Positions 16,566-32,301 of a stretch of 64,000 bases of DNA are shown here, in pieces. Under the pieces are notes generated by a model. That model was not told the DNA's origin. It did not search any database and saw only the letters and a list, made by a program, of their open reading frames with translations. Location of the stretch: assembly GCA_021081985.1 (NCBI GenBank), contig GCA_021081985.1_3639.1. One strand, written 5' to 3'. Origin of the DNA: a phage. Both the position numbers and the translations under genes were made by a program. Position 1 is the first letter of the stretch. Each line of letters opens with the position of its first letter.

Positions 16566-17891
16566 TTAATATATAGGATCCCACGTCAAAGAATCTACCT
16601 CACGAACACATTTGCCAACAGGAAATTGCGGAACACCGTCATCGGTCCTTGCTTGGTATGTAAAAGTTATATACTTGCCGATAAGTTTTTTCATATTCTC
16701 TTGTGAGCGTTCTTCGTGTGTGCCTCTCATCTTACAGTTAAATTGTGTACCATCCTTCTCAGCACACAACAGGACACCTTCTCCATTCTTATCCTCAAAG
16801 GAATCAAGAACTCTGGCCTCACCATCCTGAAACAATTTCCACTTTTGAAGATCAGACGATCTTTGTCCAAACTCATACTTTCCGTGAAAGTTCCTTATTA
16901 CAACACCCTCATAACCTGCTTCCATAAACTCCTTGATGAGCATTTTAACACGATCCTCATCAGACACTATTGCTCCGTGCACTACTTTAATCAGGTTATA
17001 AGGCCATGTATACTCAGAGACTTTCTGTAAATTATTAAACCTACACTTGTCTGTGTCAGAAGACATCCATGGTGTGTCATCTTCCGAAGGTATATCGAAA
17101 ATATGATATTCTAAGTCTAAACTTGAATAACCACAATACTTATTAATATTTTTCTCTGGTTTCTTTGTGATAGGATGTTCTAACCCTTCGGAGTCTTTCC
17201 AAAACTCATCACCATTGTTAATTGCTTTTTCAAATCGCTTTATGTCTGATTGATAGTCTTTTTCTATCTCACATTCTATCTCTTCTGGTGTTCTCCATTT
17301 CTTAGCCAAAGAGACTATTTTCTGGAGACTTAACCCATGAATATACAACTCTCCATCAAACATTTTCAATCCTGTCTTTTTGGCTAGTTTAGACATCTGA
17401 TCAAGCAATTGGCCTTGTACAGGATATGTTTTATTGCCACGACTATTAAACACAGGCACGCCATCATCACCAACCAGAACAAGTGCTCTAACACCATCAA
17501 GTTTTGGTTGAACATGCAAAGGATACACTAAAGAACTTTTCCTTTTGATGGCATCATGTGCCAGCATTGGTGAGAAATCTTGGGTTTTTGTAAGATCATC
17601 CTTAGATACGCGATACCCAAGGCGTACTTGTTTTTCCCACTTAGATTTTGCCTCCAAAACAGCTTGTTCTGTATCAGTTGTCTCATTTTTCTTACCGATG
17701 TTTTTGGCAAAGCATTTTGTGCGTTTATACTGCATTTTACCGTTTTCTTTACCAAACTCAACAACAGTTTCTGATCCATCTGCCCACACATTCCACACTT
17801 GATATGTACCATCCCTGTTTAGGGCGTATAGTGTTGGAAGGTTATTTTCAAGCATTAAATACCTCGCTTGTGACAACAGGTTTTCCTTCAA
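16566..17891 (-). CDS. ATP-dependent DNA ligase
   Basis: Nucleotidyltransferase motif I KLDGVRAL (KxDGxR); 441 aa. Confidence 0.7.
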   Translation of the reverse strand: MKENLLSQARYLMLENNLPTLYALNRDGTYQVWNVWADGSETVVEFGKENGKMQYKRTKCFAKNIGKKNETTDTEQAVLEAKSKWEKQVRLGYRVSKDDLTKTQDFSPMLAHDAIKRKSSLVYPLHVQPKLDGVRALVLVGDDGVPVFNSRGNKTYPVQGQLLDQMSKLAKKTGLKMFDGELYIHGLSLQKIVSLAKKWRTPEEIECEIEKDYQSDIKRFEKAINNGDEFWKDSEGLEHPITKKPEKNINKYCGYSSLDLEYHIFDIPSEDDTPWMSSDTDKCRFNNLQKVSEYTWPYNLIKVVHGAIVSDEDRVKMLIKEFMEAGYEGVVIRNFHGKYEFGQRSSDLQKWKLFQDGEARVLDSFEDKNGEGVLLCAEKDGTQFNCKMRGTHEERSQENMKKLIGKYITFTYQARTDDGVPQFPVGKCVREVDSLTWDPIY

Positions 17892-18633
17892 GGTGATTTT
17901 CTACCAACTCAATAAGTTTTTGGTTGCTGAATGCTTCAACTGCTCCACAGCGCATTTGGTACACACCATATTTATCATACTGCTCTTGTTCAAAGTAATT
18001 GATCGCTGGGTTTATTACAACCAGTTTAATACCTCGTTTTGCGATTGCATGCAGCAATTCCCAGTTAAAGTCGATAACCTGATTAGAGCAGCCAACCAGA
18101 AGTACAAGATCTTGAGTATTCAAGTCATCAAGCATGGTAAACATGTCCTGATAAAGTGGTGCATTCTCACCGAAAAATACCACATTTGGCTTGCACCACC
18201 AGTAATCATCAGGGTCAACAACCGCATATCCGACATCAATCACACGTTTAGGAAACTCTTCACCATTCTGTACAACAAGCTCTTTGAGAAAACCATGTAC
18301 ATGGAGAATATCCTTCTTTTCAATGCCAGCACGTTCAAGCAGATCGTCAACGTTTGTTGTAAGATTACGTACTTGTCCAGGATAACGGTTATACCATTCT
18401 GCTACACGAAGATGTGCCATGTTGGGGTGCACAGTCTTCAATTCTTCACGGCGTTTGTTATAAAATTCGTGTGTTTTGTGGTAAAAATTACCACGAAATG
18501 CATGAATATTACATACTTCTTCAAGATCATATTCATCCCAAAGAGCTTTACCTGACGAAGTATCTGTACGGAATGTGCGAATACCGCTTTCTGTTGACAT
18601 ACCTGCACCACTAATCACAAGTAATCGACGCAT
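17848..18633 (-). CDS. Sir2-family (sirtuin-like) NAD-dependent protein
   Basis: GAGMSTESGIRTFR, TTNVDDL, HVHG, VVFFGE motifs; no CxxC...CxxC Zn ribbon seen. Confidence 0.65.
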   Translation of the reverse strand: MRRLLVISGAGMSTESGIRTFRTDTSSGKALWDEYDLEEVCNIHAFRGNFYHKTHEFYNKRREELKTVHPNMAHLRVAEWYNRYPGQVRNLTTNVDDLLERAGIEKKDILHVHGFLKELVVQNGEEFPKRVIDVGYAVVDPDDYWWCKPNVVFFGENAPLYQDMFTMLDDLNTQDLVLLVGCSNQVIDFNWELLHAIAKRGIKLVVINPAINYFEQEQYDKYGVYQMRCGAVEAFSNQKLIELVENHLEGKPVVTSEVFNA

Positions 18634-18641
18634 ATAACCAC

Positions 18642-19049
18642 CTATTGTAATTTTAAAGAGTTACGTAAACGTGCTTCTTGACGGTCACGAATAAACTGCG
18701 GGACATCATGAATGCTTTCGTTACCATGATAATTTTCCACAACTACAGATGTTACATCATAGCAGTAGTTTTCTGCTAAGTCAAGATAAGGTTTCAACTC
18801 TTTCGCAGAAGTTGTTGTGTTTGAAACAATAATCTTTTCAACTTCATTCTGCATGTGGAGTTCTACTTTGTCACGACACCATTGATGAGCTTTGTGGATA
18901 TTTTCTTCTTTCCACTCATACACACCGTCTTCGGTGTAATGAAATTGGTCAGCTTCACACACAGGCCAACGACCATCATCAGACAACTCTTTAGCAAGAG
19001 TTGATTTTCCTGACCCAGAGACACCACGTAAAATAAATAACTTTTTCAT
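18642..19049 (-). CDS. P-loop polynucleotide-kinase-like protein
   Basis: MKKLFILRGVSGSGKSTLA Walker A; 135 aa. Confidence 0.5.
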   Translation of the reverse strand: MKKLFILRGVSGSGKSTLAKELSDDGRWPVCEADQFHYTEDGVYEWKEENIHKAHQWCRDKVELHMQNEVEKIIVSNTTTSAKELKPYLDLAENYCYDVTSVVVENYHGNESIHDVPQFIRDRQEARLRNSLKLQ

Positions 19050-19059
19050 TAGTTTTCCT

Positions 19060-19392
19060 TTAGTATTGGTGACGATAAAACTTTATACCTAAAGTGTTTT
19101 CGAAATATTCTCTCGCCAACATAAACTTGTTCACGGCAGATGGGTTAGAGCTATGTACGTGAATCTCTTTAAGATTCGTAAACTTACCATCATGAAGCTC
19201 ACGTTCAATATAGATGAAAGCATCGTAACCTTCCTCATCACCACCCAAATCATTATCAAAATGGATGGAATCAATGTCGCTATCACTCATAAATTTTAGT
19301 AATGAGTAGAAGCTAGAGAGATTCTTACACCATAAGGCATTAGGGTATCCATAATCTACTGGATTTCGCAGATCATCCAACCACAGTTTCAA
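19060..19392 (-). CDS. conserved hypothetical protein (MKLWLDDLRNP...FDNDLGG motif)
   Basis: 110-aa ORF between the kinase-like and ligase-like genes; family not assigned. Confidence 0.3.
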   Translation of the reverse strand: MKLWLDDLRNPVDYGYPNALWCKNLSSFYSLLKFMSDSDIDSIHFDNDLGGDEEGYDAFIYIERELHDGKFTNLKEIHVHSSNPSAVNKFMLAREYFENTLGIKFYRHQY

Positions 19393-20321
19393 ATTGTACC
19401 TCCGAAAAAATCCTCAATAATTTCACGACGGAATTGTTCATGCAAACATTCCCAATGTTCTTTAGAATAGTTATCACGCAAATAGTTTAAAAGGTTATAA
19501 TACTCTTCGTCAACTTTCTTCTTAGCTTCTTCTGGGTTTCCCCAAATCATATCCCACTTGTTCTTACCGCCACGCATCAAAAATTTCTTCGCCAAATAGT
19601 GTGGTGATTTTATCTTCAAGAGAAGATCTTGCTGTCCTGTAGCAGCACGTACAACAAACCCTTCATGTTTGCATTCTTTAGACATTTTCAGGATGTCTGA
19701 AAAGTGCATATTTATGTAAGTCTCTGGTCGTTTAAAACCGAACTCTTTTGCGATAAGATCCAGAGCTTTTTCACTAAGCATAGAAGTTAATTTGTCTTTA
19801 TGAAATCGAACACCAATCAAATACACACCTGCCTTTTCTGGTACAATGTGTGGGTCTGAAGGAGCGCAAATCTCAAAGATAAATGTTGTCTTTGGTTCTT
19901 CCACACATGATAACAACATTGGCAAATTAGTACATTCTTCCATGATCATACCTTTTGCAAGTTTTGCAAAATCGGAATCTAGAGTTCCTGTTGTTGAAAC
20001 AATTAGCTCACCATTGTATGAGCTTACTGCTGCCATGAAGCCATTAACTTTACGTGCTGCATTCACAACCATATCTTTTGGAAGATCAGTACCGTTCTCT
20101 AAATGATTGAAAATCTTGGTAAAAGGCCACACAACGATGTTGTCATCACTGTCCACAACCATACCACGGCAATCAAGTAAGCGACTGTCTTGATCCCACA
20201 AGTTTTCCCAAAAAACTTTGTTACTGTATTTCAAAACAGACAAACCTTTAAACTCACCACTGGTATAAGTCTTCTTTTTGACAAGGCCTTTTGATACTAA
20301 ATCTTCAACATTGAATTTCAT
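19389..20321 (-). CDS. RNA ligase-like nucleotidyltransferase (putative)
   Basis: KVNGFM motif I-like lysine nucleotidyltransferase signature; 310 aa. Confidence 0.45.
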   Translation of the reverse strand: MKFNVEDLVSKGLVKKKTYTSGEFKGLSVLKYSNKVFWENLWDQDSRLLDCRGMVVDSDDNIVVWPFTKIFNHLENGTDLPKDMVVNAARKVNGFMAAVSSYNGELIVSTTGTLDSDFAKLAKGMIMEECTNLPMLLSCVEEPKTTFIFEICAPSDPHIVPEKAGVYLIGVRFHKDKLTSMLSEKALDLIAKEFGFKRPETYINMHFSDILKMSKECKHEGFVVRAATGQQDLLLKIKSPHYLAKKFLMRGGKNKWDMIWGNPEEAKKKVDEEYYNLLNYLRDNYSKEHWECLHEQFRREIIEDFFGGTI

Positions 20322-20518
20322 TTGTCTTCACCGTCACTATTGTATGATTGTTTATTAAATGACTCAATTATACATGTTGATCGTCTTGCGTCAACAGATT
20401 GGCTTGTTAAATCTTTAGCAACAACTAGTTTTTCCACATCATCTTTTTTGATGGATCCGTAAGCACCAGAATCCATCATGAAGAATATTTTATCTTCTGT
20501 TATCTTGTGTATTTTCAT
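20318..20518 (-). CDS. hypothetical protein
   Basis: 66-aa ORF. Confidence 0.25.
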   Translation of the reverse strand: MKIHKITEDKIFFMMDSGAYGSIKKDDVEKLVVAKDLTSQSVDARRSTCIIESFNKQSYNSDGEDK

Positions 20519-20539
20519 TCATAAAATCTCAATAATTAT

Positions 20540-21118
20540 TCAATGGCCATCAGCAGTGAAAACGTCTTTTTCCATACACATTTGGTATGCTTCTGGCAGA
20601 CCCAAAATTCTCCCATGTACATCCCAACCAACATCAAGAATCCGTCCTTTCGCACTGTAAGATCCGTGACTGTGCCCATGCAAGAACACAGACCCATAGT
20701 GAGATTTATTCCACGCGGCAAACGGGTAATGACTCATACAAATTTTTTGTTCATAATCGTTAAATTCGTAATAATCGCACACATCATGACCACGTTTTTT
20801 GAATGTTTTAATCGCATCAAAATTGTCATGATTACCTTTGACAAGGACGATATGCCCAACAAGTTCATCAAGAATTTCTTCAAGTCTTTTAATAACTTGC
20901 TTGCCACGACCAAAACAAAAATCACCAAGCACAAAAGTCACAGTATCGGCATCTGCGCCGTGGTTAAATTTCACTGTGAGGTCTTGGTTCATTTGTTCAA
21001 CGGTTTTGTACAAATCACCACGAAAACGTTTTGAACTCTCAAAGTTCAGGATGTTTTTATGCCAGTAATGTAAATCAGATGTTACACGGTATTTGGTTCC
21101 CATTTCTCTCTCCCTCAC
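20540..21118 (-). CDS. calcineurin-like metallophosphoesterase
   Basis: DLH, GDF, GNHD and GHSH metal-binding motifs in order. Confidence 0.7.
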   Translation of the reverse strand: MREREMGTKYRVTSDLHYWHKNILNFESSKRFRGDLYKTVEQMNQDLTVKFNHGADADTVTFVLGDFCFGRGKQVIKRLEEILDELVGHIVLVKGNHDNFDAIKTFKKRGHDVCDYYEFNDYEQKICMSHYPFAAWNKSHYGSVFLHGHSHGSYSAKGRILDVGWDVHGRILGLPEAYQMCMEKDVFTADGH

Positions 21119-21128
21119 ACAACAAAAA

Positions 21129-21566
21129 TCACTGTCGCTCTAACAAATCTTCTGCTGGATAAGCATACAGCATGTATTCCCAACCACGATGGTAATGTCT
21201 GTGTTGCCAGTTGATTAATTTTAGACACACAATGTTCACCACGTTCCTGTCCCCATGGATAAAAACACAAGTCTCAAGGATTGACTTTCCAAACTCAACA
21301 TGACTGTCAAGATACAGTTTTGTGTTGTATCTTTTTTCAGCATCCAGCATGATCTGTTTCAAGGCCAGAAATGCCTCGCAACACACAGATTTTTCATCAG
21401 AAATCATTTTGATATTCAAGCATTCACCCCCACACAGGCAACCACGCAAATCGTGTCTGATCACCACAACACAATCGGTTTGAAACAAACCTGTTTGACA
21501 CACAACAGGCATCGTCGTAGTGTCATGCCTAAACACAGACAGATATGATACGACGAAGATCCCCAC
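21129..21566 (-). CDS. Cys/His-rich hypothetical protein (first gene of the minus-strand block)
   Basis: 145-aa ORF; several Cys and an HRHYH stretch. Confidence 0.3.
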   Translation of the reverse strand: MGIFVVSYLSVFRHDTTTMPVVCQTGLFQTDCVVVIRHDLRGCLCGGECLNIKMISDEKSVCCEAFLALKQIMLDAEKRYNTKLYLDSHVEFGKSILETCVFIHGDRNVVNIVCLKLINWQHRHYHRGWEYMLYAYPAEDLLERQ

Positions 21567-22122
21567 ACAGAGTCACATAGTGACTTGTGACAACCCGAAT
21601 CCATGATTGAGATAAACACACAGAGACAAACCTGTAGGGTTTGTTGATGTGGGTTTATCTCAGAATGGCTCATGAGGGTTAGATGATCACAAGCTATCAG
21701 CGCAGTGAGCATCTTACACACTCACGTATTGCCTGAAGAGTCTCATCGACTCATGCTTTCAGGCAAAACACTATGAACTCTATGATTCGAAATCATCGAA
21801 CCATACGATTCGACTCAATCGAATCATATCAACAAAAATATTTAAAATCAAGTCTTGACATTCTTCAAGACTTAATGTATTTTAAATAAATTTTATATAA
21901 TATATTATTATATATAATACGTAGTATTATATTATATTAAATTATATTATATAATTTATATTATATTAGATCATATTAAATAGATCATAGTATTATAATA
22001 CGTAGTATTATATTTAATAGATCTTATAAGTTAGTTTAATTTGATCAGTTAGTATTGTGTCCCCAAAACGGGGACATACCCATGTCCCTGAAATGGGGAC
22101 ATATGGGAGGGGTTGACATTGT
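21567..22122. promoter_or_regulatory. divergent intergenic control region (AT-rich repeats, palindromes, promoter-like boxes)
   Basis: 556 bp non-coding between opposed gene blocks; IR gagataaac..gtttatctc (about 21610-21662), IR tgcctgaa..ttcaggca (about 21731-21766), gattcga/cgaatcat repeats, IR aagtcttga..tcaagactt with TTGACA (21850-21873), AT-rich attatat repeats (21880-22050), paired GTCCC..GGGAC hairpins (22058-22102), TTGACA at 22113-22118. Confidence 0.45.
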
Positions 22123-22548
22123 GTGGGGTTATGGGTAGCATTCTCGGTGTTGGATTACACACCGGAGTTTGCCTTGAAATCTAATGTTGGGGGTTTCCAT
22201 GTAAATCCGAAAGCTGGGTCATACATCGCTGTCCCGACAGAGTGGGTTTTTGATGAACGGTTATCACCAAGCGATCTGCAAAGATTGATACGCTTGTTGT
22301 GGAGATACGAGTATTTCAAGAATCTGAACCCTCTGGGTGGGGAACTGGTATTCTTTCCGTCACAACAATCCTTGTGTGGCCTGTTGGGGTGGAATGAAAA
22401 CTCACGAACCAAAGTGTCTGAATTTCTGTCTCGGATGGAGAGCTTTGGTTATATCAGGCGTGTTAGATCAGGATTTCAGGATTCTGATGGTAACGTGAAA
22501 CCAAGAAATTATATTATCGTCAATCGTATCAGAGGGGATAAATCATGA
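22123..22548 (+). CDS. putative winged-helix DNA-binding protein (start uncertain)
   Basis: 141-aa ORF from GTG; LIRLLWRYEYF...GYIRRVR helix-rich segment; track start lies inside promoter-like sequence so a downstream TTG near 22174 may be the real start. Confidence 0.3.
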   Translation: MGLWVAFSVLDYTPEFALKSNVGGFHVNPKAGSYIAVPTEWVFDERLSPSDLQRLIRLLWRYEYFKNLNPLGGELVFFPSQQSLCGLLGWNENSRTKVSEFLSRMESFGYIRRVRSGFQDSDGNVKPRNYIIVNRIRGDKS

Positions 22549-23354
22549 ATATTCGTTTGAGTTTGAACAAGCTACATGTGCCAGTTGACCATTTCACATT
22601 TAGTGGTGGTGAGGAGCAGATTAAGATCGATATGCGTCATGTTCCGCATGGTTCGATAGGTTTTGTTGATATCTTCGCTAGACTCAAGAACTCACAGGAT
22701 GTGATGTGTTTGGCACTGCTTGTTGATGCAGTTAATCGTCTTGGCAATTTGGATGTTGGTGTGGAAAAGGTTTTACACCTGCCGTACATTCCGTATGCTC
22801 GACAAGACCGAGTTATGAACCCTGGAGAATCTCTGTCGGTGAAAGTCTTTGCCACAATGATTAACTCGCTTGGTTTCCACAAAGTCATCGTCGATGATCC
22901 ACACAGTGACGTATCCGCAGCACTGATTGATAACGTGAAAATTCGTTCTCAGACTGATTTGTTCTTGAACATGAATTTTGATTTTGATCTGCTTACGGAC
23001 GAATCGCTTGTGTTGGTTGCTCCAGATGCAGGTGCACGCAAGAAGACCCAGAAGGTTGCTGATACCTTGGAACTATCTGTGGTTGAAGCAGGTAAAATCC
23101 GTGATGTGGGAACAGGGGCAATCACAGGCACAACAGTGTTTGGTGATGTTGGTGGGAAGACATGCCTGATTGTCGATGATATCTGCGATGGTGGGTTTAC
23201 GTTTACAAACTTAGCTCAAGCCTTGAAAGCTGCTGGTGCAAAACGTGTTATTTTGTATGTTACGCATGGAATTTTCTCTCGTGGGAAAGAATTTATTCTC
23301 GACGGTGGTGTTGACGAAATTTATGCATACTACGACTGGACAGAAAATTTTTAA
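22545..23354 (+). CDS. ribose-phosphate pyrophosphokinase (PRPP synthetase) family protein
   Basis: LPYIPYARQDR, VLVAPDAGA and LIVDDICDGGFT motifs. Confidence 0.8.
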   Translation: MNIRLSLNKLHVPVDHFTFSGGEEQIKIDMRHVPHGSIGFVDIFARLKNSQDVMCLALLVDAVNRLGNLDVGVEKVLHLPYIPYARQDRVMNPGESLSVKVFATMINSLGFHKVIVDDPHSDVSAALIDNVKIRSQTDLFLNMNFDFDLLTDESLVLVAPDAGARKKTQKVADTLELSVVEAGKIRDVGTGAITGTTVFGDVGGKTCLIVDDICDGGFTFTNLAQALKAAGAKRVILYVTHGIFSRGKEFILDGGVDEIYAYYDWTENF

Positions 23355-23418
23355 GTTGGTATTGACAAAGATACGTTTTAGTGAAAAAATACGTTTTTAG
23401 GATTGGAGGGTTGAGATC

Positions 23419-25134
23419 ATGCTTCACAAAGAAAGTCCATTGCTGTTTGCAGATTTTTATAAACCAAGTCACATCTCGATGTACGACAAACGTTCACAGT
23501 TTGTTCAAGACAACATGACACCACGCAATGCGAAACACTTTGTACACTTTGCAGATGATGACCATCGTGTAATGTTTGCTGGTCTTCAGGGATTTATCAA
23601 GTGGTTCCTGATTGACATGTTTAATAATAATTTCTTTGCTTTACCGAAAGAAAAGGCGATTCAGGATTACAAAGAGATTTGTGATTTGAGCATTGGGAAG
23701 GATGCTGTTGAAACTTGGGGTTTTGAGAGATTGCATGATCTTGGATATCTCCCAATTGAAATTAGAGCTTTGCCTGAAGGAACTCTTGTTCCTGTTCAGG
23801 TTCCTATGTTCACGATTCAGAACACGCACCCTGATTTTTACTGGCTGCCAAACTTCCTTGAGAGCGTGATCTCCTCGGAGACTTGGAAGACAATTACCAC
23901 GGCAACGACTTTCTGGCAATATCGTAAACTATCAGAACTGTGGGCAAAGAAAACATGTGATAACAACGATCACGTTCCTTTCCAGAACCATTGTTTTGCA
24001 TACCGTGGTGAAGCTGGAACACATGACGCAGCACAGAGCGAATTTGGGCAACTGATTAGCTCAATGGGCACAGATACAATTCCAGCGATTGTTTACGCAA
24101 ATCGCTATTACAACATGAAAGGTCGCTTTGTTGCTGGGTCTATTCCCGCATCTGAGCATAGCGTAGCGACAACGAACATTGGTTTTATTGTTGAGCGTAT
24201 CCAGCAGGAAAATCCTGACATGTCGCTTGCTGAAGCACGTTTTCGTGCTGAAGTTGAGTTCTTAAAGCGTTATGCAACAGAGATTTTTCCGTCAGGCTAT
24301 GCTTCATACGTCGCAGACAGCTATGATTTTTGGGCAATCATTACACAAGCAGCCAAAATCCTGAAAGATGAGATTATGTCTCGTGATGGCAAGCTGGTCT
24401 TCCGACCGGACAGTGGGATCCCAGAGCACATCATTGCTGGCTATCGTGTGTGCTCTCAGGAAGAATGGGCAACGGGACAGTGCTGTGATATGGATGCTGT
24501 GCTGTTTAAAAATGGCAAATATGTCACTCTGTACGAGATGTCCAGAGACACTTCTTGGATGCGAGATTCGGAAGGCAACCTCGTAGATTGGAAATCTTTG
24601 ACAGGTGATGAATTTACAAATTATCTTACCAAAGAGGAGGTTAAGGGTGCTGTACAATGCTTGTGGGAAATCTTTGGTGGTAGTGTAAACTCTTTGGGTT
24701 ACAAAGTTCTTGATAGCCATGTTGGTTTAATCTACGGAGACTCTATCACAATCTCTCGTGCTAAAGAGATCTTTGAGCGCCTTGAAGAACGAGGCTTTGC
24801 TTCCAGCAACATTGTGTTTGGTGTAGGATCTTATACAACGCAATATACAACCCGTGATTCTCTTGGGATGGCTGTAAAAGCTACTGGTGCTGTGATTGAT
24901 GGCAGACAAGTAATGGTTGTAAAAGAGCCTAAGACTGATCTTGGGAAGAAATCTGCGAAAGGTTTTGTTAAAGTTATTCGTGGTGATGATGGTGAGTTGA
25001 AGCTGGTAGATAATCTTGGTATTAATCAGGTATCTGACCCTGACAACGAGCTTAGAACAGTTTTTGTTAATGGTAAGCTGCTTGTGGATGAGGATCTTGA
25101 AGAAATTCGTCAAAGAGCTTTGTCACAGCTTTAG
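23419..25134 (+). CDS. nicotinamide phosphoribosyltransferase (NAMPT/NadV) family protein
   Basis: 571 aa; N-terminal LLFADFYKPSHISMY and overall NAMPT-like pattern; GGAGGG RBS. Confidence 0.8.
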   Translation: MLHKESPLLFADFYKPSHISMYDKRSQFVQDNMTPRNAKHFVHFADDDHRVMFAGLQGFIKWFLIDMFNNNFFALPKEKAIQDYKEICDLSIGKDAVETWGFERLHDLGYLPIEIRALPEGTLVPVQVPMFTIQNTHPDFYWLPNFLESVISSETWKTITTATTFWQYRKLSELWAKKTCDNNDHVPFQNHCFAYRGEAGTHDAAQSEFGQLISSMGTDTIPAIVYANRYYNMKGRFVAGSIPASEHSVATTNIGFIVERIQQENPDMSLAEARFRAEVEFLKRYATEIFPSGYASYVADSYDFWAIITQAAKILKDEIMSRDGKLVFRPDSGIPEHIIAGYRVCSQEEWATGQCCDMDAVLFKNGKYVTLYEMSRDTSWMRDSEGNLVDWKSLTGDEFTNYLTKEEVKGAVQCLWEIFGGSVNSLGYKVLDSHVGLIYGDSITISRAKEIFERLEERGFASSNIVFGVGSYTTQYTTRDSLGMAVKATGAVIDGRQVMVVKEPKTDLGKKSAKGFVKVIRGDDGELKLVDNLGINQVSDPDNELRTVFVNGKLLVDEDLEEIRQRALSQL

Positions 25135-26045: not shown

Positions 26046-26121
26046 GGCCCCTTAGCTCAGTGGTTAGAGCAGGTGACTCATAATCGCTTGGTCGCTGGTT
26101 AAAGTCCAGCAGGGGCCACCA
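26046..26121 (+). tRNA. tRNA-Met (anticodon CAT; could also be Ile2 or initiator)
   Basis: Manual cloverleaf: acceptor GGCCCCT/AGGGGCC, D-arm GCTC..GAGC, anticodon loop cTCATaa, T-arm GCTGG..CCAGC, encoded CCA. Confidence 0.75.
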
Positions 26122-26173
26122 AATGTGGCACACGAAATAAACTAGGTTTATTGTTTTCGGAGGAGAAAACTTA

Positions 26174-26497
26174 ATGGCTAAGAAACAGTCTGCTAAAAAG
26201 GTATCAGCTATCGAGGCGATCAAGCAACCTTTTCAGTTTGAATCAAAATCCACGCAGACACATTCTGCACCGCACGATGTGCGTCTTGGTGGCAAAACGC
26301 AAACTGTAGCAGTTCTGAAAAAACGCAAAGATGAAGACGGTAATACTGAAATGTATTATGAATCTGTGTCTCGTGTCATTGGTGGTGAAGTGATTTCTGC
26401 TTCCTATCGTATCCGTACTGGGAAAACAAAGCGTGAACGAGAAGTGAAACAGAAAACAAGCACTCCTGTAGGAAACGTTAAGAAAACTAAAAAATAA
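26174..26497 (+). CDS. hypothetical basic protein
   Basis: 107 aa, Lys-rich; GGAGGAG RBS. Confidence 0.35.
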   Translation: MAKKQSAKKVSAIEAIKQPFQFESKSTQTHSAPHDVRLGGKTQTVAVLKKRKDEDGNTEMYYESVSRVIGGEVISASYRIRTGKTKREREVKQKTSTPVGNVKKTKK

Positions 26498-26573
26498 TTT
26501 ACTGACGAGAGTGCCACCGTGAGCCAGCGTCATTAAACAAAGGGAATCACGGACATTCAGGAGGGTTGAGATT

Positions 26574-26765
26574 ATGATAGGATCTTTGCTTAAGATTGCA
26601 AGCGATGTAACAACAACGGCTGTTGAAGTGACTGCTGCGGTAACAACTCCGTTTGTTGATTTAGCATCAGATGCTATAGCAGCAGCAGACGAGATGATTT
26701 TGTCACCGACATCTGATCTTGTCCAAGATCTTTGTGATTCTATAAAAGATGCTGTAAAAGATTAA
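26574..26765 (+). CDS. hypothetical small acidic protein
   Basis: 63 aa; AGGAGGG RBS. Confidence 0.3.
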   Translation: MIGSLLKIASDVTTTAVEVTAAVTTPFVDLASDAIAAADEMILSPTSDLVQDLCDSIKDAVKD

Positions 26766-26773
26766 AATTTTTC

Positions 26774-26802
26774 TTGACATAGTTTTTGTTTTTCTGTATA
26801 GT
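26774..26802 (+). promoter_or_regulatory. sigma70-like promoter (TTGACA-17-TATAGT)
   Basis: TTGACAtagtttttgtttttctgTATAGT upstream of the ORF at 26839. Confidence 0.5.
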
Positions 26803-26838
26803 TACTTTATCAAAGCTAATTTACATAGGAGAGATTGA

Positions 26839-27486
26839 ATGTCTACTAAGATTTCCGTAACTCGTGCACTTGCTTCTATCTCTAAGATTGAAGATAAGAT
26901 CAATAAGCGCATTTATAACCTTGAATGTATTAAGATTGCAAAAGGAACTGAGAATAATTGTAAGATTCCTGGTTATATCGGCTCTGTTGATGATTTTAAG
27001 AAATCTGCGATCAACGACTATCAAAGTCTGCAAGACCTCTTGGCAGTTCGCGATGAACTGAAGGCAAAAATTGTCAAGTCTAATGCTGAGACAATTGTCA
27101 AAATTGGTAAGGTGTCTATGACAGTTGCTGAGGCAATCGAACGCAAACGGACGATTTGCTTTAAACAAGAGTTGTTAAACAAACTTTGTGCACAGCGTGC
27201 TTCTGCACAGCTTCTTCTGGCAAAAGAAGAAAAATCTCTGGAAGATAAACTTGAAAATGCCAGAGCGCCATATATCCAACGTGATAAAGCGCCAGATGCA
27301 GAGCAGATTAAGACTGTGGAAGCTCCCATTCGAATGATGAACACACCATCGGTTGTGGATCCTCTTGAACTGGCTTCTAAGATTCGTTCTCTTGAAGAAG
27401 AGATTGAAGATTTCTTGTCTAACGTTGATTTTGCGTTGTCTGAGTCAAACGCTAAGACAGAAATTGAGATTGAGCACTCTCTCTAA
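26839..27486 (+). CDS. hypothetical coiled-coil protein
   Basis: 215 aa; heptad-like charged stretches; AGGAGAG RBS. Confidence 0.4.
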   Translation: MSTKISVTRALASISKIEDKINKRIYNLECIKIAKGTENNCKIPGYIGSVDDFKKSAINDYQSLQDLLAVRDELKAKIVKSNAETIVKIGKVSMTVAEAIERKRTICFKQELLNKLCAQRASAQLLLAKEEKSLEDKLENARAPYIQRDKAPDAEQIKTVEAPIRMMNTPSVVDPLELASKIRSLEEEIEDFLSNVDFALSESNAKTEIEIEHSL

Positions 27487-27520
27487 AAGGCTCTGATAAT
27501 ATCATTATCGTTCCTTTGTT

Positions 27521-27733
27521 TTGAAATTTAAAACATTGCTTTTGATTAACGAAGTTTACATCATCTTGCCTCCTGGGGATTGGAGGTTAAATATTCCCCA
27601 CCATGTATCGTATATGTATGAGGATAATACAGAACATAGATGCAGCGAGGCACACGAAGATGCTTTGTTGTTTCCACTAAGTAAAAGTTCATACAATAAA
27701 GGTCAATGGTTAAATGTGAAAGATGAAACTTGA
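27521..27733 (+). CDS. hypothetical protein
   Basis: 70-aa ORF. Confidence 0.25.
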   Translation: MKFKTLLLINEVYIILPPGDWRLNIPHHVSYMYEDNTEHRCSEAHEDALLFPLSKSSYNKGQWLNVKDET

Positions 27734-27851
27734 AAGTTGACTCTTGAAAGATAAAATTTCGTTTATCATCTGAAATCCTTGACACAGGTTATGGCTCACA
27801 AGATATGGTCTGTAAAGCCTCAAGGCTGTTAATCGGAAGCAATGTCTTATT

Positions 27852-27926
27852 GCTCGTATAGCTCAACGGTAGAGCACCTGCCTTGTAAGCAGGGGGTTGC
27901 AGGTTCGAAACCTGCTGCGAGCACCA
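27852..27926 (+). tRNA. tRNA-Thr (anticodon TGT)
   Basis: Acceptor GCTCGTA/TGCGAGC, D-arm GCTC..GAGC, loop cTTGTaa, T-arm GCAGG-TTCGAAA-CCTGC, CCA encoded. Confidence 0.75.
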
Positions 27927-27928
27927 AT

Positions 27929-28025
27929 GCTGGGTAAGCCCTTTGGCAAGGGCGAGGATTTATAATCCTGAAAATAGACGGGCTAGCCGTTGAATACATA
28001 GGTGGTTCGATTCCATCACCCAGCC
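27929..28025 (+). ncRNA. atypical tRNA-like element (97 nt; intact acceptor, D- and T-arms, aberrant anticodon region)
   Basis: Acceptor GCTGGGT/ACCCAGC, D-arm GCCC..GGGC, T-arm GGTGG-TTCGATT-CCATC, but about 46 nt between D- and T-arms with two hairpins and no encoded CCA. Confidence 0.3.
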
Positions 28026-28226
28026 ACAAGTTTGTTTTATAGTGTATTAGCTTATATTATTCGATATAAATGCCTGATCAGCATTTGTTGTGAATGAGGC
28101 ATACAATGCGTGAGAAAGCTATCGGTGCGCAACGTTGATTTCAAACGTAGTCATGCTCGTAGAGCACCAACTGTGGAAGTTGGAGGGTGGTTGAGTAACC
28201 ATACACTATAAAGCATTCTTTAAAAT

Positions 28227-28311
28227 GGGCGGTGTCCCCACACAAGTCTTCTAAACTTGTACTTAAAAAGTGGGAAGGAAGTGAGAGGTTCGATTCCTCC
28301 ACCGTCTACCA
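28227..28311 (+). ncRNA. atypical tRNA-like element (T-arm, acceptor and CTTCTAA anticodon-like hairpin but no D-arm)
   Basis: GGTTCGATTCC T-loop, acceptor GGGCGGT/ACCGTCT plus ACCA, hairpin CAAGT-cttctaa-ACTTG; does not fold as a canonical cloverleaf by hand. Confidence 0.3.
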
Positions 28312-28387
28312 GATTAACCCCAACTTGAGAATCGTCAGCGCGGCTCGTAAGACCCACTCTATAGGTTCTCTACCTGGGGTGCTTATT

Positions 28388-28464
28388 GCACGGTTGCCGG
28401 AATTTGGTTACGGGTCTGTCTGCAAAACGGATATATGTCGGTTCAAGTCCGACACCGTGCTCCA
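28388..28464 (+). tRNA. tRNA-Cys (anticodon GCA)
   Basis: Acceptor GCACGGT/ACCGTGC, loop cTGCAaa, T-arm GTCGG-TTCAAGT-CCGAC, CCA encoded. Confidence 0.7.
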
Positions 28465-28501
28465 AACTTTCAATTTCTTGGCAAATATGTTAAAATACCA
28501 C

Positions 28502-28530
28502 TTGACAGATATGTTTTTATTTGATAATAT
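28502..28530 (+). promoter_or_regulatory. sigma70-like promoter (TTGACA-17-TAATAT)
   Basis: TTGACAgatatgtttttatttgaTAATAT upstream of ATG 28551. Confidence 0.45.
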
Positions 28531-28550
28531 CATTAAGTGGGGTTTTTAAA

Positions 28551-28898
28551 ATGGCTACTAAGCAGCTTACAAAACGTAGAAGAGGAAAAGGTCGTCCTCT
28601 GAAAGAGGAATCTAATGCAATTCAGTTAGAGAAAAATATCCTAGATTTGAAAACGAATCTGATTGCAATGATTCCTGAAGCTCATCAGGTTCTTAGGGAT
28701 TTGATGAAGAATGTGAATACAAAAGACAATATCAGAGAAAATATCGCTCGTTATGTTATTGAGAAAGGTGAGCAGATGCTTTCTGATTACTTTGATGAGG
28801 AAAACGAAGAGTTACTCGAAAAAGATAACTCAGAAAAAGCGCCTATTAAGGCAGCCAAACCATTCTCGACGGATATTGTTCAATTCAAACAAGGTTAA
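28551..28898 (+). CDS. hypothetical protein (start at internal ATG of track ORF 28521..28898)
   Basis: MATKQLTKRRRGKGRP...; promoter-like element immediately upstream. Confidence 0.35.
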   Translation: MATKQLTKRRRGKGRPLKEESNAIQLEKNILDLKTNLIAMIPEAHQVLRDLMKNVNTKDNIRENIARYVIEKGEQMLSDYFDEENEELLEKDNSEKAPIKAAKPFSTDIVQFKQG

Positions 28899-28899
28899 T

Positions 28900-28989
28900 G
28901 TGTCGTTAGACCGTAGGGGTAGCGGGGGAGACTGTAAATCTCCTGTCTCGAAAGGGACTCGGGTAGTTCGACTCTATCACGGCACACCA
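28900..28989 (+). tRNA. tRNA-Tyr (anticodon GTA), long variable arm
   Basis: Acceptor GTGTCGT/ACGGCAC, loop cTGTAaa, variable-arm hairpin GTCTC-gaaa-GGGAC, T-arm GGTAG-TTCGACT-CTATC, CCA encoded. Confidence 0.7.
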
Positions 28990-29057
28990 ACTAAATCTGT
29001 ACTGGCTTTGATGTGTGACGATACCCTCCAATCGTGGTTGTTGGGTCAGTACAGTTT

Positions 29058-29133
29058 GGGAGTGTAGATCAGTTAGTAGATCGCTCGACCGATAATCGAG
29101 AGGACGTAGGGGCAGAGCCTACCACTCCCACCA
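29058..29133 (+). tRNA. tRNA-Ile-like (anticodon GAT) with non-canonical T-loop and C33; possibly degenerate
   Basis: Acceptor GGGAGTG/CACTCCC, D-arm GATC..GATC, loop ccGATaa, T-arm GTAGG-GGCAGAG-CCTAC. Confidence 0.4.
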
Positions 29134-29138
29134 AATAT

Positions 29139-29213
29139 GCATCCATAGTTTAATTGGGAAAACTACAGCCTTCCAAGCTGAAGTCGAGGGTTCGATGCCC
29201 TCTGGATGCTCCA
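29139..29213 (+). tRNA. tRNA-Gly (anticodon TCC)
   Basis: Acceptor GCATCCA/TGGATGC, D-arm GTTT..AAAC, loop cTTCCaa, T-arm GAGGG-TTCGATG-CCCTC, CCA encoded. Confidence 0.65.
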
Positions 29214-29338
29214 GTTAAAAGATGTCAATGAAATCCGCTTGGGTCAACTGAAGACCGTAACAAATTCCATGGGGTTGTGTTTGCGGTCCAACCCTAGACA
29301 TCTTCTATCTTTAGTAGAAGGCTTTAATACGGACGAGT

Positions 29339-29569
29339 ATGATGGTTTCTAAATTAATCATAACAAGGCATCATAATGCTAAAGAAATAGAGATTGTGAA
29401 TGCTGCTGGCACTCTTGTGCTAAAAGTTGGTAAAGACTGTCCTTTTGAATTGTGCCAGAAGGAACTTTTAAGTTTGTGCGGTTTCAGGTTTAAACAGATT
29501 ATCTTTGAAAATGCTTTTCAATATTCAGACTTAAACCAGTACATTATATCTAGGCTTGATCCTGCATGA
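29339..29569 (+). CDS. hypothetical protein embedded in tRNA array
   Basis: 76-aa ORF. Confidence 0.3.
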   Translation: MMVSKLIITRHHNAKEIEIVNAAGTLVLKVGKDCPFELCQKELLSLCGFRFKQIIFENAFQYSDLNQYIISRLDPA

Positions 29570-30123
29570 GATACTTGAAATATTTATCTTGGATCCTGTT
29601 AGCACCTCTTGATCCAATTATGTCGGCTCTCTGTGTTATTCTGGCTCCTTTTGTTGTTCCGTTCTATAATGAGAAGACAGGGCATCTACCCTATATTTTC
29701 AGGTGGATGGAAACATATGATAATCCTATAGACGGTGACAGAGGACACATAGAGAGATGGGAAGAAGTCCGTAAAATAGGAAGTTTTGGTGTTTACCTAC
29801 AACGAGTTGCTTGGTTGTGGAGAAATAAAGCCTACAATTTTTCCTATCACGTACTTGGACGTGAAATCGCATCTGTGACAAAGTGGAAAGGAAACATCCA
29901 TGTAAGCTCTGATGTGGAGGATAATCAACAAGGCTATTTGTTGATGTGGAATGACAATGCGTGGGGTGTATTCGCGTTTGTCCCGTCTTTTAGATTGTTT
30001 GGAAAACAATTTTACTGGCGAATTTATGTCGGTTGGAAACTGAAGAGTGTGGTTCCTGAAGACAGAGCTTTTTCAAGAGAGAGGGTGATGTTGGCATTTT
30101 TCATAAGTCCTTTCCGAAAATAG
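29566..30123 (+). CDS. hypothetical protein (hydrophobic N-terminus, Trp-rich) embedded in tRNA array
   Basis: 185-aa ORF, ATGA overlap with upstream ORF. Confidence 0.4.
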   Translation: MRYLKYLSWILLAPLDPIMSALCVILAPFVVPFYNEKTGHLPYIFRWMETYDNPIDGDRGHIERWEEVRKIGSFGVYLQRVAWLWRNKAYNFSYHVLGREIASVTKWKGNIHVSSDVEDNQQGYLLMWNDNAWGVFAFVPSFRLFGKQFYWRIYVGWKLKSVVPEDRAFSRERVMLAFFISPFRK

Positions 30124-30129
30124 TTTTTA

Positions 30130-30211
30130 ATGAGAGTAGCGTAACTTCACTGGGTGAAGGCTGGCCTCCAAAACCAGTGACTAAGAGGTTCGATTCCTCA
30201 CTCTCGTGCCA
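30130..30211 (+). tRNA. tRNA-like gene, possible tRNA-Trp (anticodon CCA), irregular D-region
   Basis: Acceptor ATGAGAG/CTCTCGT, loop cTCCAaa, T-loop TTCGATT, CCA encoded; D-region forms a tight 6-bp hairpin instead of a normal D-arm. Confidence 0.35.
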
Positions 30212-30212
30212 A

Positions 30213-30288
30213 AGGGGATTAGCATAGTGGCCTAATGCAACGGGCTTTGACCCCGTGATCGGTTGTTCGAATCAACCATCCCCTGCCA
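30213..30288 (+). tRNA. tRNA-Gln (anticodon TTG)
   Basis: Acceptor AGGGGAT/ATCCCCT, D-arm GCAT..ATGC, loop cTTTGac, T-arm GGTTG-TTCGAAT-CAACC, CCA. Confidence 0.75.
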
Positions 30289-30297
30289 AGTTAAAAC

Positions 30298-30387
30298 GGA
30301 GAAGCAAATCGATTGGCGACGAAACCACATTGGAAATGTGCTGACTGGTAAAACGGCTTGAGAGTTCGATTCTCTCCTTCTCCACCA
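30298..30387 (+). tRNA. tRNA-Ser (anticodon GGA), type II
   Basis: Acceptor GGAGAAG/CTTCTCC, loop tTGGAaa, T-arm GAGAG-TTCGATT-CTCTC, CCA; variable arm pairs weakly. Confidence 0.5.
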
Positions 30388-30401
30388 GTTTTTAAGGATT
30401 T

Positions 30402-31145
30402 ATGTATGCACTCTCCCCAAGAAAAAAAAATGGAAAACAGATATTTAATTTGTTGAAAAGCGGAAAAGGCTTCTCAAACCCGCTTCAATCAGGTCTTTCT
30501 CTGGTTGGTGGTAAAGTAAGTAGTCTATCTTCTTTATCTTCCTCTATTTCTTCGGTAACTAACCCAGCTATAAAGGCTCAATTAGCTGCCGCAGGTTTGA
30601 CAACTGGCGTTTTATCAAATTTTACTTCGTCTCTTGGTTCTGTTACAAGCACGACAAAAACGCTTGTTGATTATGGTCAGAAATCTGTTGAAGAGTTCTC
30701 CCAAAGAATGCACGCAGCGAGTAATTATATGAGTACTCTGAGCAGAATGGGAGAAAAGACAAGTTGTTCAATATTTAGTGACGTTATGTCTGTAGCCACT
30801 GATTTAGGTAAGAAAGCTATGGATGCCGTTAATTCCGCGATGGATGCGGTGAACGATGTTATGTCTCAATTGCAAGATGCAATAAATAAGGGTTTGAATA
30901 CAATATCTAGTTTGGCGAGTAAAGCTGTCTCAGCGATAAACAAAGGGATCCAGAAAATGTCTGAGTATGCTAGCCAAGTGACAAAGATGATTGAAGATGA
31001 AGCAAAGAAGTTGGCAGACTACTTAAAGACAAGTGCTGAAGGATTTCTCGCAGATATCCTACCTGATTGGTTTAACGATTCTTGTAAATCTGGTATAGTT
31101 GACCAGATTGCTACACCAGAGATGAAAGAAGTTCTTAAAAAGTAA
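30402..31145 (+). CDS. hypothetical Ser/Thr-rich helical protein embedded in tRNA array
   Basis: 247-aa ORF between tRNA genes; start may be internal. Confidence 0.4.
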   Translation: MYALSPRKKNGKQIFNLLKSGKGFSNPLQSGLSLVGGKVSSLSSLSSSISSVTNPAIKAQLAAAGLTTGVLSNFTSSLGSVTSTTKTLVDYGQKSVEEFSQRMHAASNYMSTLSRMGEKTSCSIFSDVMSVATDLGKKAMDAVNSAMDAVNDVMSQLQDAINKGLNTISSLASKAVSAINKGIQKMSEYASQVTKMIEDEAKKLADYLKTSAEGFLADILPDWFNDSCKSGIVDQIATPEMKEVLKK

Positions 31146-31147
31146 TT

Positions 31148-31241
31148 GGAAGATTAACCCTAATTTGGTAAGGGGTCTCCCTGCTAAGGAGATAGTAACC
31201 CAGAAATGGGTGTGCCAGTTCAAGTCTGGCATCTTCCTCCA
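31148..31241 (+). tRNA. tRNA-Ser (anticodon GCT), type II
   Basis: Acceptor GGAAGAT/ATCTTCC, loop cTGCTaa, variable-arm hairpin ACCCA-gaaa-TGGGT, T-arm GCCAG-TTCAAGT-CTGGC, CCA. Confidence 0.65.
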
Positions 31242-31320
31242 CTGTATGTCAAGGCTCAGATTTCTTCGGACCTGGGCGTTCGCCTTTGTTGGGTGTATAT
31301 TCTCGGCAGAGGCTATCTTT

Positions 31321-31409
31321 GGAGGCTGGGGTGCATGGTGCACAAGCTGGTTTGAACCCAGTCCCGCTGTAGAGATATGGTGACAGTTCGATTCTGTCAG
31401 CCTCCTCCA
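31321..31409 (+). tRNA. tRNA-Ser (anticodon TGA), type II
   Basis: Acceptor GGAGGCT/AGCCTCC, loop tTTGAac, T-arm GACAG-TTCGATT-CTGTC, CCA. Confidence 0.6.
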
Positions 31410-31632
31410 AGTTATCTTTAATGTAGCTTGTTTAGTTGCTTGGTGTGATTTTTCGGTGGATGGCTGCAACCATCTTATCGATACCCCAGAGCAGTCCGCT
31501 CTTTACTGGCGTAAGCCAAACACTTATGATGGTCATGTAATCGTAATCTATCATTAGTGTGCTCTCCCTGGAGAGCTGTTGCGTATAGCTAATTATTGTG
31601 TGAGTAATTAGCTATTTTAAAGATAATTTGAC

Positions 31633-31709
31633 GGATCTGTAGCCAAATGGTTTAAGGCACTCGACTTTTAATCGAGAGATTGTTGGTTCGAATCCAACCA
31701 GATCCACCA
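31633..31709 (+). tRNA. tRNA-Lys (anticodon TTT)
   Basis: Acceptor GGATCTG/CAGATCC, D-arm GCC..GGC, loop cTTTTaa, T-arm GTTGG-TTCGAAT-CCAAC, CCA. Confidence 0.8.
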
Positions 31710-31718
31710 AAATATTCA

Positions 31719-31809
31719 GGTTCTTTGACCGAGTGGTCGATGGTGACGGCCTGTTAAGCCGTTGGGAGGAATCTCCCCACCGAAGGTTCGAATCCTTCAG
31801 GAACCGCCA
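31719..31809 (+). tRNA. tRNA with anticodon GTT (Asn codons) but type-II body and G73 discriminator
   Basis: Acceptor GGTTCTT/AGGAACC, D-arm ACCG..TGGT, anticodon stem ACGGC/GCCGT with loop cTGTTaa, variable-arm hairpin GGGAG-gaat-CTCCC, T-arm GAAGG-TTCGAAT-CCTTC, disc G, CCA. Confidence 0.5.
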
Positions 31810-31893
31810 ATTCTTGACTTAATCAAGTCACAGATATCACCTAGCCAGCGATACCAGTTAGTAGATTCTGGGACAATTAAAATCTACATTTCT

Positions 31894-31971
31894 CTGTCCG
31901 TAGCGCAGCTTGGGTAGCGCGGGTCACTTGGGATGATCAGGTCGTTGGTTCAAATCCAACCGGACAGACCA
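31894..31971 (+). tRNA. tRNA-Pro (anticodon TGG)
   Basis: Acceptor CTGTCCG/CGGACAG, D-arm GCGC..GCGC, loop cTTGGga, T-arm GTTGG-TTCAAAT-CCAAC, CCA. Confidence 0.75.
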
Positions 31972-32013
31972 ATAAACATATACATATCAAAGCAGAAATG
32001 TACAGAGGATACC

Positions 32014-32205
32014 ATGTTAACAGTTAAAGTCGTATCTCCAAATGATGAACAAATTTTTTGTGGGAAAATTGTTGGGTATTGTGCTCATCAAAAGTCTATA
32101 GCTATTTCAGGTATTGACCAAAAAGTGTTTTTGTCTGAGGATCAGACCGCTTATGTGATCAATGCCAATGGAAAAACTATTTCTGTGTATCGTGGAAAAC
32201 CGTAA
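32014..32205 (+). CDS. hypothetical small protein (internal ATG of track ORF 31933..32205, which overlaps tRNA-Pro)
   Basis: MLTVKVVSPNDEQ...; AGGA RBS 5 nt upstream. Confidence 0.3.
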   Translation: MLTVKVVSPNDEQIFCGKIVGYCAHQKSIAISGIDQKVFLSEDQTAYVINANGKTISVYRGKP

Positions 32206-32219
32206 CTCTTAATATAAAT

Positions 32220-32296: not shown

Positions 32297-32301
32297 ATTA
32301 T

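Follow-up and report, generated by a model that had tools for sequence, protein, structure and literature searches.

The 64,000-nucleotide stretch of contig GCA_021081985.1_3639.1 analyzed here (the window) comes from a phage of the genus Avunavirus (Vequintavirinae), with ~96% identity to the Escherichia phages Av-05 and vB_EcoM_TH18 and to three marmot isolates. Two opposed gene blocks are separated by a non-coding region, and the first gene to the right of this region encodes a 124-aa winged-helix protein, phrog_8453 (Table 1). The region contains a self-complementary left segment, a pair of predicted divergent promoters, an A+T-rich tract, a conserved box, and two dyads, all within a 552-bp module that occurs in two inverted copies per genome. 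A first-pass annotation delimited the non-coding region as 21567–22122 (556 bp) and described it as a promoter/operator hub and possibly a replication origin. All of the elements it listed were found in the sequence where it had placed them, and the non-coding stretch was confirmed, with the right limit moved to 22173 by a corrected gene start. It missed the inverted duplication of the module and the initiator-type nature of the neighboring winged helix, and it misplaced the start of the open reading frame (ORF). The origin, which it raised as a possibility, is now the leading hypothesis, drawn from sequence through dyad–protein covariation, the A+T-rich tract, and an initiator-like fold.

Table 1. 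Coordinates of features in and around the non-coding region of the window
Feature	Position	Strand	Remarks
Leftward gene block	16566-21118	-	DNA ligase, Sir2, polynucleotide-kinase-like ATPase, cREC-REC domain protein, T4 Rnl1-like RNA ligase, metallophosphoesterase
Repeat module copy 1, 552 bp	21558..22109		two inverted copies per genome
Highly self-complementary segment, predicted 5' leader of leftward transcript	21558..21820	-	RNA fold, Avunavirus only
Long inverted repeat, 25-nt arms, 5-nt loop	21608-21632 / 21638-21662		arms 84% complementary
Nested inverted repeat TGCCTGAA-GAGTC...GACTC-TTCAGGCA	21730..21765		
GATTCGA / TCGAATC repeat cluster	21784..21825		
P_L, predicted leftward promoter: TTGATT, 17-nt spacer, TGaTATGAT	21823..21851	-	start predicted near 21816
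Inverted repeat, 9-bp stem, holding P_R1 -35 TTGACA (21855)	21850..21873		
P_R1, predicted rightward promoter: TTGACA, 17-nt spacer, TATTTT	21855..21883	+	
A+T tract, candidate DNA unwinding element	21878..22027		91% A+T
Conserved box ATAAGTTAGTTTAAT..GATCAGTTAGTATTGT = AAGTTAGT direct repeat	22026..22057		
Dyad 1, TGTCCCC-AAAAC-GGGGACA	22058..22076		predicted winged-helix protein site
Dyad 2, TGTCCC-TGAAAT-GGGGACA	22083..22101		25 bp after dyad 1
Predicted promoter of winged-helix gene: TTGACA, 17-nt spacer, TAGCAT (22136)	22113..22141	+	just outside repeated module
Hairpin in 5' untranslated region, CGGTGT-N8-ACACCG	22144..22167	+	3' arm overlaps GGAG ribosome-binding site
Winged-helix gene, 124 aa, phrog_8453	22174..22548	+	predicted dyad-binding, initiator-like; Arg78 opens recognition helix
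Rightward block after winged-helix gene	22545-25134	+	PRPP synthetase, NAMPT (NAD salvage)
14 tRNA genes	26046-32377	+	downstream of rightward early block

The winged-helix gene had been given a GTG start at 22123. TTG 22174 is the likelier start, with a GGAG sequence at 22164–22167 (6 nt upstream) and an N terminus that aligns with those of homologs. With the gene beginning there, the TTGACA box that had been noted after the palindromes, confirmed at 22113, and TAGCAT at 22136 constitute an upstream promoter lying outside the gene. The protein belongs to a small family: an exhaustive hidden Markov model (HMM) search of 1.84 billion clusters recovered 19 cluster representatives, whereas a word-indexed protein search found 3 homologs. 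PHROGs lists phrog_8453 as "unknown function." An AlphaFold2 model (predicted local distance difference test score 79.6) comprises a winged helix with an N-terminal β-hairpin, a long first helix, and a recognition helix spanning residues 78–90. The best full-length matches to this model in Foldseek were RepA_N structures, one of them a Rep–DNA complex. When 29 family members were scanned against PHROGs, every family besides phrog_8453 that was matched by more than one member was replication-initiator or DnaD-like; these cross-matches were sub-threshold and led to phrog_270 (15 of the 29 members), phrog_428 (13), phrog_186 (11), the O-like phrog_678 (5), and phrog_8102 (4). The fold ranking and the cross-matches favor initiator winged helices over regulators, and the modeled structure and profile matches together point to an initiator-type protein related to RepA_N, DnaD, and ORC/Cdc6. 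A distant homolog in rV5, gp075, carries the RefSeq label "replication initiation protein," apparently assigned by similarity. Three long metagenomic family members (P0012, P0014, and P0017; 233–253 aa) are extended by a helical region and finish in acidic tails (...DWVPF, ...DTVPF, or ...DPPF), which may resemble the protein-recruiting C-terminal tip of bacterial SSB.

The two similar palindromes recognized earlier at 22058–22102 proved to be 19-bp dyads. The pattern TGTCCC-N7-GGGACA occurs in the window at these two positions only, where ~0.001 occurrences are expected from base composition. A pattern scan of viral contigs returned only Av-05. The confinement of the dyads to this locus within the window argues that the winged-helix protein is not a global regulator. 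Their centers precede the transcription start predicted for the winged-helix gene by ~57 and ~82 bp and do not fall over its core promoter. The dyads were also considered as intrinsic terminators, and this was rejected because a terminator scan was negative and a T run follows them on neither strand.

The relationship between protein and dyads was examined in a covariation table of 21 lineages, in which the N-terminal residue of the recognition helix (Arg78 in the window) was set against the dyad half-sites. All 13 proteins with Arg at this position are paired with G as the second base of the half-site (TG..CC/GG..CA), and all seven with Gln are paired with A (TA..CC/GG..TA); rV5 combines Lys with G (TG half-site). 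Arg or Gln therefore tracks G or A in 20/20 lineages, with at least three independent switches. The Gln proteins share 65% (PVP-SE1 clade and window), 54% (W70 and phiTE), and 69% (P0003 and KP13-16) identity with their nearest Arg relatives. For P0003, P0007, and P0004, the half-site base was predicted before the loci were read, and the predictions held. Direct base contacts would produce covariation of this kind, and the comparison thus gives good support to the winged-helix protein as the one that binds the dyads; the palindromes behave as binding sites for the product of the neighboring gene. The resulting specificity rule (Arg/Gln at helix position 1 and G/A at half-site base 2) is a directly testable prediction.

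The AT-rich repeats of the first-pass annotation were borne out as a 150-bp tract; the second-richest stretch of this length in the window has 74% A+T. The tract is also the least stable 100-bp duplex of the 64 kb (−86.5 kcal/mol; mean of all, −129.2; SD, 6.2). It contains two ATAATAC-GTA-GTATTAT palindromes (21914–21930 and 21995–22011) and GATC sites at 21969, 21983, and 22020, and a fourth GATC lies at 22043 in the adjoining conserved box. Taken alone, this GATC clustering is unexceptional, as four sites per 120 bp are also found elsewhere in the window; over 17 related loci, 63 sites were counted where 16–26 were expected, in WAGATCWW contexts. Copies and strains have tracts of different length but similar composition, and the dyads, box, promoters, and left segment are conserved.

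On comparison of sequences, the architecture recurs across Vequintavirinae, in one Stephanstirmvirinae phage, and in metagenomic relatives. The winged-helix homolog is the first gene after a 270–370-bp divergent intergenic region in PVP-SE1 (Seunavirus), Ro1 and KB57 (Mydovirus), Hena1, phiTE, CR3, CR9, and F1M1E (Certrevirus), W70 (Septuagintavirus), SSBI34, two Serratia phages, and KP13-16 (Stephanstirmvirinae), and the metagenomic relatives have the same layout. The shared order begins with a strong leftward σ70 promoter, which has a rightward back-to-back partner in PVP-SE1, Ro1, and KB57, and continues with an AT-rich tract bearing WAGATCWW motifs and often with a AAGTTAGT...GTATTGT box. 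One to three dyads of the form TGTNCC-N(3–8)-GGNACA follow and then, in most genera, a TTGACA −35 box and the winged-helix gene. The box at 22026–22057 is common to PVP-SE1, Hena1, Ro1, KB57, KP13-16, L039, and L040. In rV5, four tandem TGTCCG-N5-CGGACA dyads spaced 21–22 bp apart are instead found downstream of the gene, with a GATC-bearing AT-rich tract and a GC-rich element beyond them; two metagenomic members have dyads on both sides of the AT tract. Together with the second copy of the module, these cases indicate that the gene, the dyads, and the AT/GATC tract occur together whatever the promoter context.

Some relatives have further elements at this locus. A GC-rich element (e.g., CCGTAGCCCGGAGGGCGAGCGTAGCGAGG) separates the AT tract from the dyad in Certrevirus (L004, L010, L011, and L013), W70 (L006), and the Serratia phages, and is also present in L014; that of rV5 (L016, 2950–3015) follows the AT tract, and the element is absent from the window. 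Paired ATTATGAATG.AATGAATAAT palindromic repeats occur in the AT tracts of Certrevirus, W70, and the Serratia phages. Where two gene blocks of rV5 converge, 2.6 kb are non-coding (104013–106618, L020); this gap is a different locus from the module. A HIDEN-SEQ preprint describes an intergenic region of ~2 kb without transposon insertions in the rV5-like phage Bas54 (10.1101/2025.11.20.689424); judged by position, this region appears to be the counterpart of the rV5 gap and not of the locus under study, and it was not used as support.

The predicted promoters of the window match the σ70 consensus at 10/12 positions (P_R1 and the winged-helix promoter) and at 9/12 with a TG extension (P_L). Such matches are not above chance in the region as a whole (7, against 6.0 ± 2.5 in shuffled sequences), and the promoters are supported because their positions recur in distant relatives, not by the number of matches. 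The −35 boxes of P_L and P_R1 stand back to back, 3 nt apart, with identical geometry in PVP-SE1, Ro1, and KB57; the divergent promoters of Ro1 and KB57 match at 11/12 and the PVP-SE1 pair at 10/12. The inverted repeat with an embedded TTGACA noted earlier at 21850–21873 is present, and the −35 box of P_L (21846–21851) abuts its left edge. P_R1, whose start is predicted near 21890, reads into the AT tract, so that ~250 bp would be transcribed without an ORF; for the winged-helix promoter the predicted start is near 22148. A search of the literature found no transcript-mapping study of this phage group. The description of the region as a promoter/operator hub fits these comparisons with respect to the conserved back-to-back −35 boxes and the covarying palindromes. 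The left 290 bp, with the hairpins and GATTCGA repeats, are genus-specific and would be transcribed as a leftward leader, and are thus not obviously an operator.

Promoter and AT tract could together form an R-loop origin of the T4 oriF/oriG or T7 type, in which the P_R1 transcript would prime the leading strand and the winged-helix protein would be accessory or regulatory. T4 and T7 origins have a layout of promoter and unwinding element, and here, as in PVP-SE1, Ro1, and KB57, a consensus-like promoter directly precedes an ORF-free AT tract that, in the window, is the least stable duplex. However, no upstream rightward promoter matching at ≥10/12 was detected in Hena1, W70, Certrevirus, or rV5, and the partners conserved across relatives are the dyads, the protein, and the AT tract rather than a promoter and an AT tract. 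We judge this origin type improbable.

A purely transcriptional region is a possibility to be taken more seriously, although on balance we think it unlikely. The winged-helix protein would then autoregulate its own promoter and the divergent early promoters, and the AT tract would act as a spacer, a UP-element, or curved DNA. The consensus-like σ70 promoters at conserved positions agree with this. So do the dyads, which in most genera directly precede the gene's −35 box and of which PVP-SE1, Ro1, KB57, Hena1, and L021 have a third within the 5' untranslated region, at the position of the hairpin in the window. Weak Pfam and PDB sequence matches lead to Crp, TrmB, MarR, and DeoR-type regulators, and a GntR-like similarity was noted in the original rV5 annotation; the covariation, moreover, speaks for binding and not for its effect. 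Against regulation alone, the rV5 dyads and AT tract lie downstream of the gene, where no promoter is annotated, and the second copy of the module in the window's relatives retains both dyads and AT tract although it abuts a converging gene at that gene's 3' end and so has nothing to regulate there. Between genera, the spacing of dyad and −35 box varies by ~3–11 bp, a spread that suits the geometry of neither strict activation nor occlusion, and P_R1 would transcribe ~250 bp devoid of any ORF. The structural and PHROG rankings described above likewise lean toward initiators.

We read the module as an origin made up of iterons and an unwinding element, resembling lambda ori or iteron-plasmid origins in function, overlapping divergent early promoters, present in two inverted copies, and served by a stand-alone DnaD/RepA_N-like protein; the chance that this reading is right seems to us about even. 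In the proposed mechanism, dimers of the 124-aa protein would bind the dyads, the step for which the covariation provides support. The bound protein, negative supercoiling, and transcription from P_R1 might then open the AT tract, and the phage's own primase-helicase of the T7-gp4 kind could load on the opened DNA. By occupying the dyads, the protein would probably also modulate its own promoter (22113). Primase-helicase genes of this kind were reported for rV5, whose authors tried to locate an origin by skew analysis, without success (PMC3606486). No paper on the dyads, on the function of the winged-helix protein, or on an origin in rV5/PVP-SE1-like phages was found in the literature. In the 64-kb window, the sign change of the GC skew, the skew minimum, and the switch in gene orientation all coincide at the non-coding region.

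Several observations weigh against an origin. GC skew is confounded with transcription direction, and the rV5 authors voiced the same caution (PMC3606486). DnaA boxes (TTATNCACA) within one mismatch are absent from 21400–22200, and IHF consensus sites are absent from the locus. For the protein, no Pfam family reaches its cut-off and none is found at E ≤ 0.1, RepA_N and DnaD included; a profile search against PDB sequences returns generic helix-turn-helix regulators; and homology to lambda O was rejected as not significant (BLASTP E = 0.3; hhalign against the lambda O N terminus, P = 0.095). The protein is also no more than a DNA-binding domain, no part of which is an obvious candidate for recruiting a helicase. 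Dyads beside the protein's own promoter, together with the third dyad of the PVP-SE1 group, would be just as usual for a transcription factor that regulates itself. The near identity of the two copies could stem from gene conversion or from assembler collapse of the repeat rather than from selection. Finally, large virulent myoviruses can depend mostly on recombination-dependent replication.

Lambda ori is among the closest known systems. The lambda record contains four 18-bp dyad iterons (e.g., TCCCTCAAAACGAGGGA) spaced 20–24 bp apart and followed by an AT-rich stretch. Both loci thus have several 18–19-bp dyads about two helical turns apart (25 bp here and 21–22 bp in rV5) beside an AT-rich stretch, and in both a gene of the locus encodes the winged-helix domain that binds the sites, or here is predicted to bind them. 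Even the half-sites are alike (TCCCTC-AAAAC-GAGGGA in lambda and TGTCCCC-AAAAC-GGGGACA in the module). Transcription across lambda ori activates it, and the module, too, has a predicted promoter that reads through it. The resemblance to lambda O is functional and not by descent: the module protein is not a detectable member of Phage_rep_O (PF04492), its matches to the O-like phrog_678 are weak (5/29), and it lacks the C-terminal domain for helicase-loader recruitment. The lambda origin lies inside the O gene, whereas the dyads here are upstream of the gene and in rV5 downstream. The module also has two dyads (four in rV5) and an AT tract of 150 bp compared with ~40 bp in lambda, and its phage is virulent and encodes its own replisome.

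Other initiators and origins were compared as well. The N-terminal domains of RepA (pSK41/pTZ2162; RepA_N) and DnaD share only ~15% sequence identity with the window protein, with no Pfam or PDB sequence match. RepA_N proteins possess a C-terminal domain and have their sites inside repA, whereas the window protein is the N-terminal domain alone. As in P1 oriR and Escherichia coli oriC, GATC is clustered in an AT-rich tract (here, 75 bp hold four sites), and the T-rich motifs GATCTT.T.TTTT of relatives may resemble the oriC 13-mers; in contrast to these origins, the module lacks both DnaA boxes within one mismatch and P1-type direct-repeat iterons. Herpes simplex virus oriS has an AT-rich center with flanking sites for the origin-binding protein and divergent early promoters, and is present in two copies within isomerizing inverted repeats. 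This is an analogy only. The proteins and the host domain are unrelated, and isomerization of the phage genome is hypothetical.

The extent of the module was defined by comparison with its second copy and with Av-05, homology to which starts at ~21556–21558 and ends at 22109. Against Av-05, similarity begins abruptly at 21558, the left flanks being unrelated. The right boundary falls between dyad 2 and the −35 box of the winged-helix gene, which indicates that the dyads belong to the module and not to the promoter. A second copy, corresponding to window positions 22109 back to 21556, is found in inverted orientation inside a contiguous scaffold of 137,964 bp (L043; 95% identity over 559 bp), where it is bordered on one side by a converging gene (3' end) and on the other by genes of the Av05_0019 type. 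Two contigs of the marmot phages also carry module sequence at either end: one of 54 kb has the segment there, oppositely oriented, and one of 79 kb has the dyads. For the two inverted copies, four different flanks are on record. The sequence CCCCACACAG is present at 21561–21570, with a direct copy at 21428–21437, and an inverted partner, TGTGTGGGG or CTGTGTGG, lies just beyond the right boundary (22120–22128; L043 and L018) in both right flanks.

With the module duplicated in inverted orientation, a virulent phage might exist as two genome isomers. A recombination or structural element, whose copies would invert the 54-kb segment or whose palindromes would serve packaging or cruciform formation, with the left part an RNA leader (e.g., for processive antitermination), would account for the four flanks, for the CCCCACACAG/TGTGTGGGG inverted pair that brackets the module, and for the extreme self-complementarity of the left 263 nt. 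Both joins are in public records: the join of flanks L1 and R1 across the module (L1-M-R1) in the window, L026, L030, and L031, in agreement with the synteny of other genera, and L2-M-R1 in the Av-05 record. That the element is mainly one of recombination or structure nevertheless appears very unlikely. Most relatives have a single copy of this architecture at the syntenic place, so duplication is not its core function; in addition, the annotation of neighboring window genes includes no recombinase near the module, and the public records do not establish the second isomer. The Av-05 genome was assembled from 36-nt reads (PMC4463512), and its left flank is unreliable as proof of that isomer; missing from the record (120,938 bp) are the 21 kb left of the module, with the ribonucleotide reductase, thymidylate synthase, and DNA ligase genes. 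The TH18 record (133,882 bp) is a concatenation of OK136180 and OK136181 end to end (79,447 + 54,435), and the "106-bp deletion" of TH18 was dismissed as a contig-join artifact.

Genome isomers generated by segment inversion are found in herpesviruses and in the yeast 2-micron plasmid. A bolder form of the origin reading would have the minimal origin present twice in inverted orientation, recombination between the copies flipping the 54-kb segment to give two virion isomers, and phrog_8453 and rV5 gp075 acting as the origin-binding protein of all Vequintavirinae and Stephanstirmvirinae; we regard this combination as doubtful. The rV5/PVP-SE1-like phages are a large group much used in biocontrol and therapy, for which a specific cis-element and the 124-aa phrog_8453 are now named as candidates for the origin and its initiator, respectively.

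A 552-bp inverted duplication has consequences for genome records, as public assemblies break or mis-join at the module. Those with breaks or mis-joins at the repeat are ON075799.1, OK136180/1, OK181858-62, and KM190144, and independent metagenome contigs break at 21556 and 21561. Many metagenomic contigs with the winged-helix gene (L023, L024, L027, L028, and L032–L036) begin 58–566 bp upstream of it, inside the dyad/AT region, so assembly breaks at the element recur across samples and lineages. Assemblies of Avunavirus-type phages need care at this duplication.

The left segment of the module differs in character from the rest. Homologs of 21558–21850 are confined to Avunavirus (Av-05-like phages), and RNA folding of the segment against shuffled sequence gave z = −7.5 for the minus strand and −6.5 for the plus strand. 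The first-pass annotation had noted a gagataaac/gtttatctc inverted repeat, which is present and forms the 9-bp core of a longer repeat with 25-nt arms. Its tgcctgaa/ttcaggca repeat was located at 21730–21737 and 21758–21765, and an inner GAGTC/GACTC pair can be added to it. The three GATTCGA copies it described lie on the plus strand at 21784 and 21807 and on the minus strand at 21819; the cluster holds three of the eight copies in the 64 kb, and most of the others are inside tRNA genes. No credible ORF was found in the left segment or among the small ORFs of the whole region, and an Rfam covariance search of 20800–22800 at E ≤ 1 returned only two chance-level microRNA matches (E = 0.29 and 0.88). 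Being downstream of P_L, the segment would form the leader of both leftward operons; roles as an antitermination RNA or as a single-strand priming site are speculations.

On the leftward side, ATG 21512 or 21407 is probably the start of the first ORF rather than GTG 21566. The genes on either side of the non-coding region (Table 1) make up an RNA-repair and NAD-related set.

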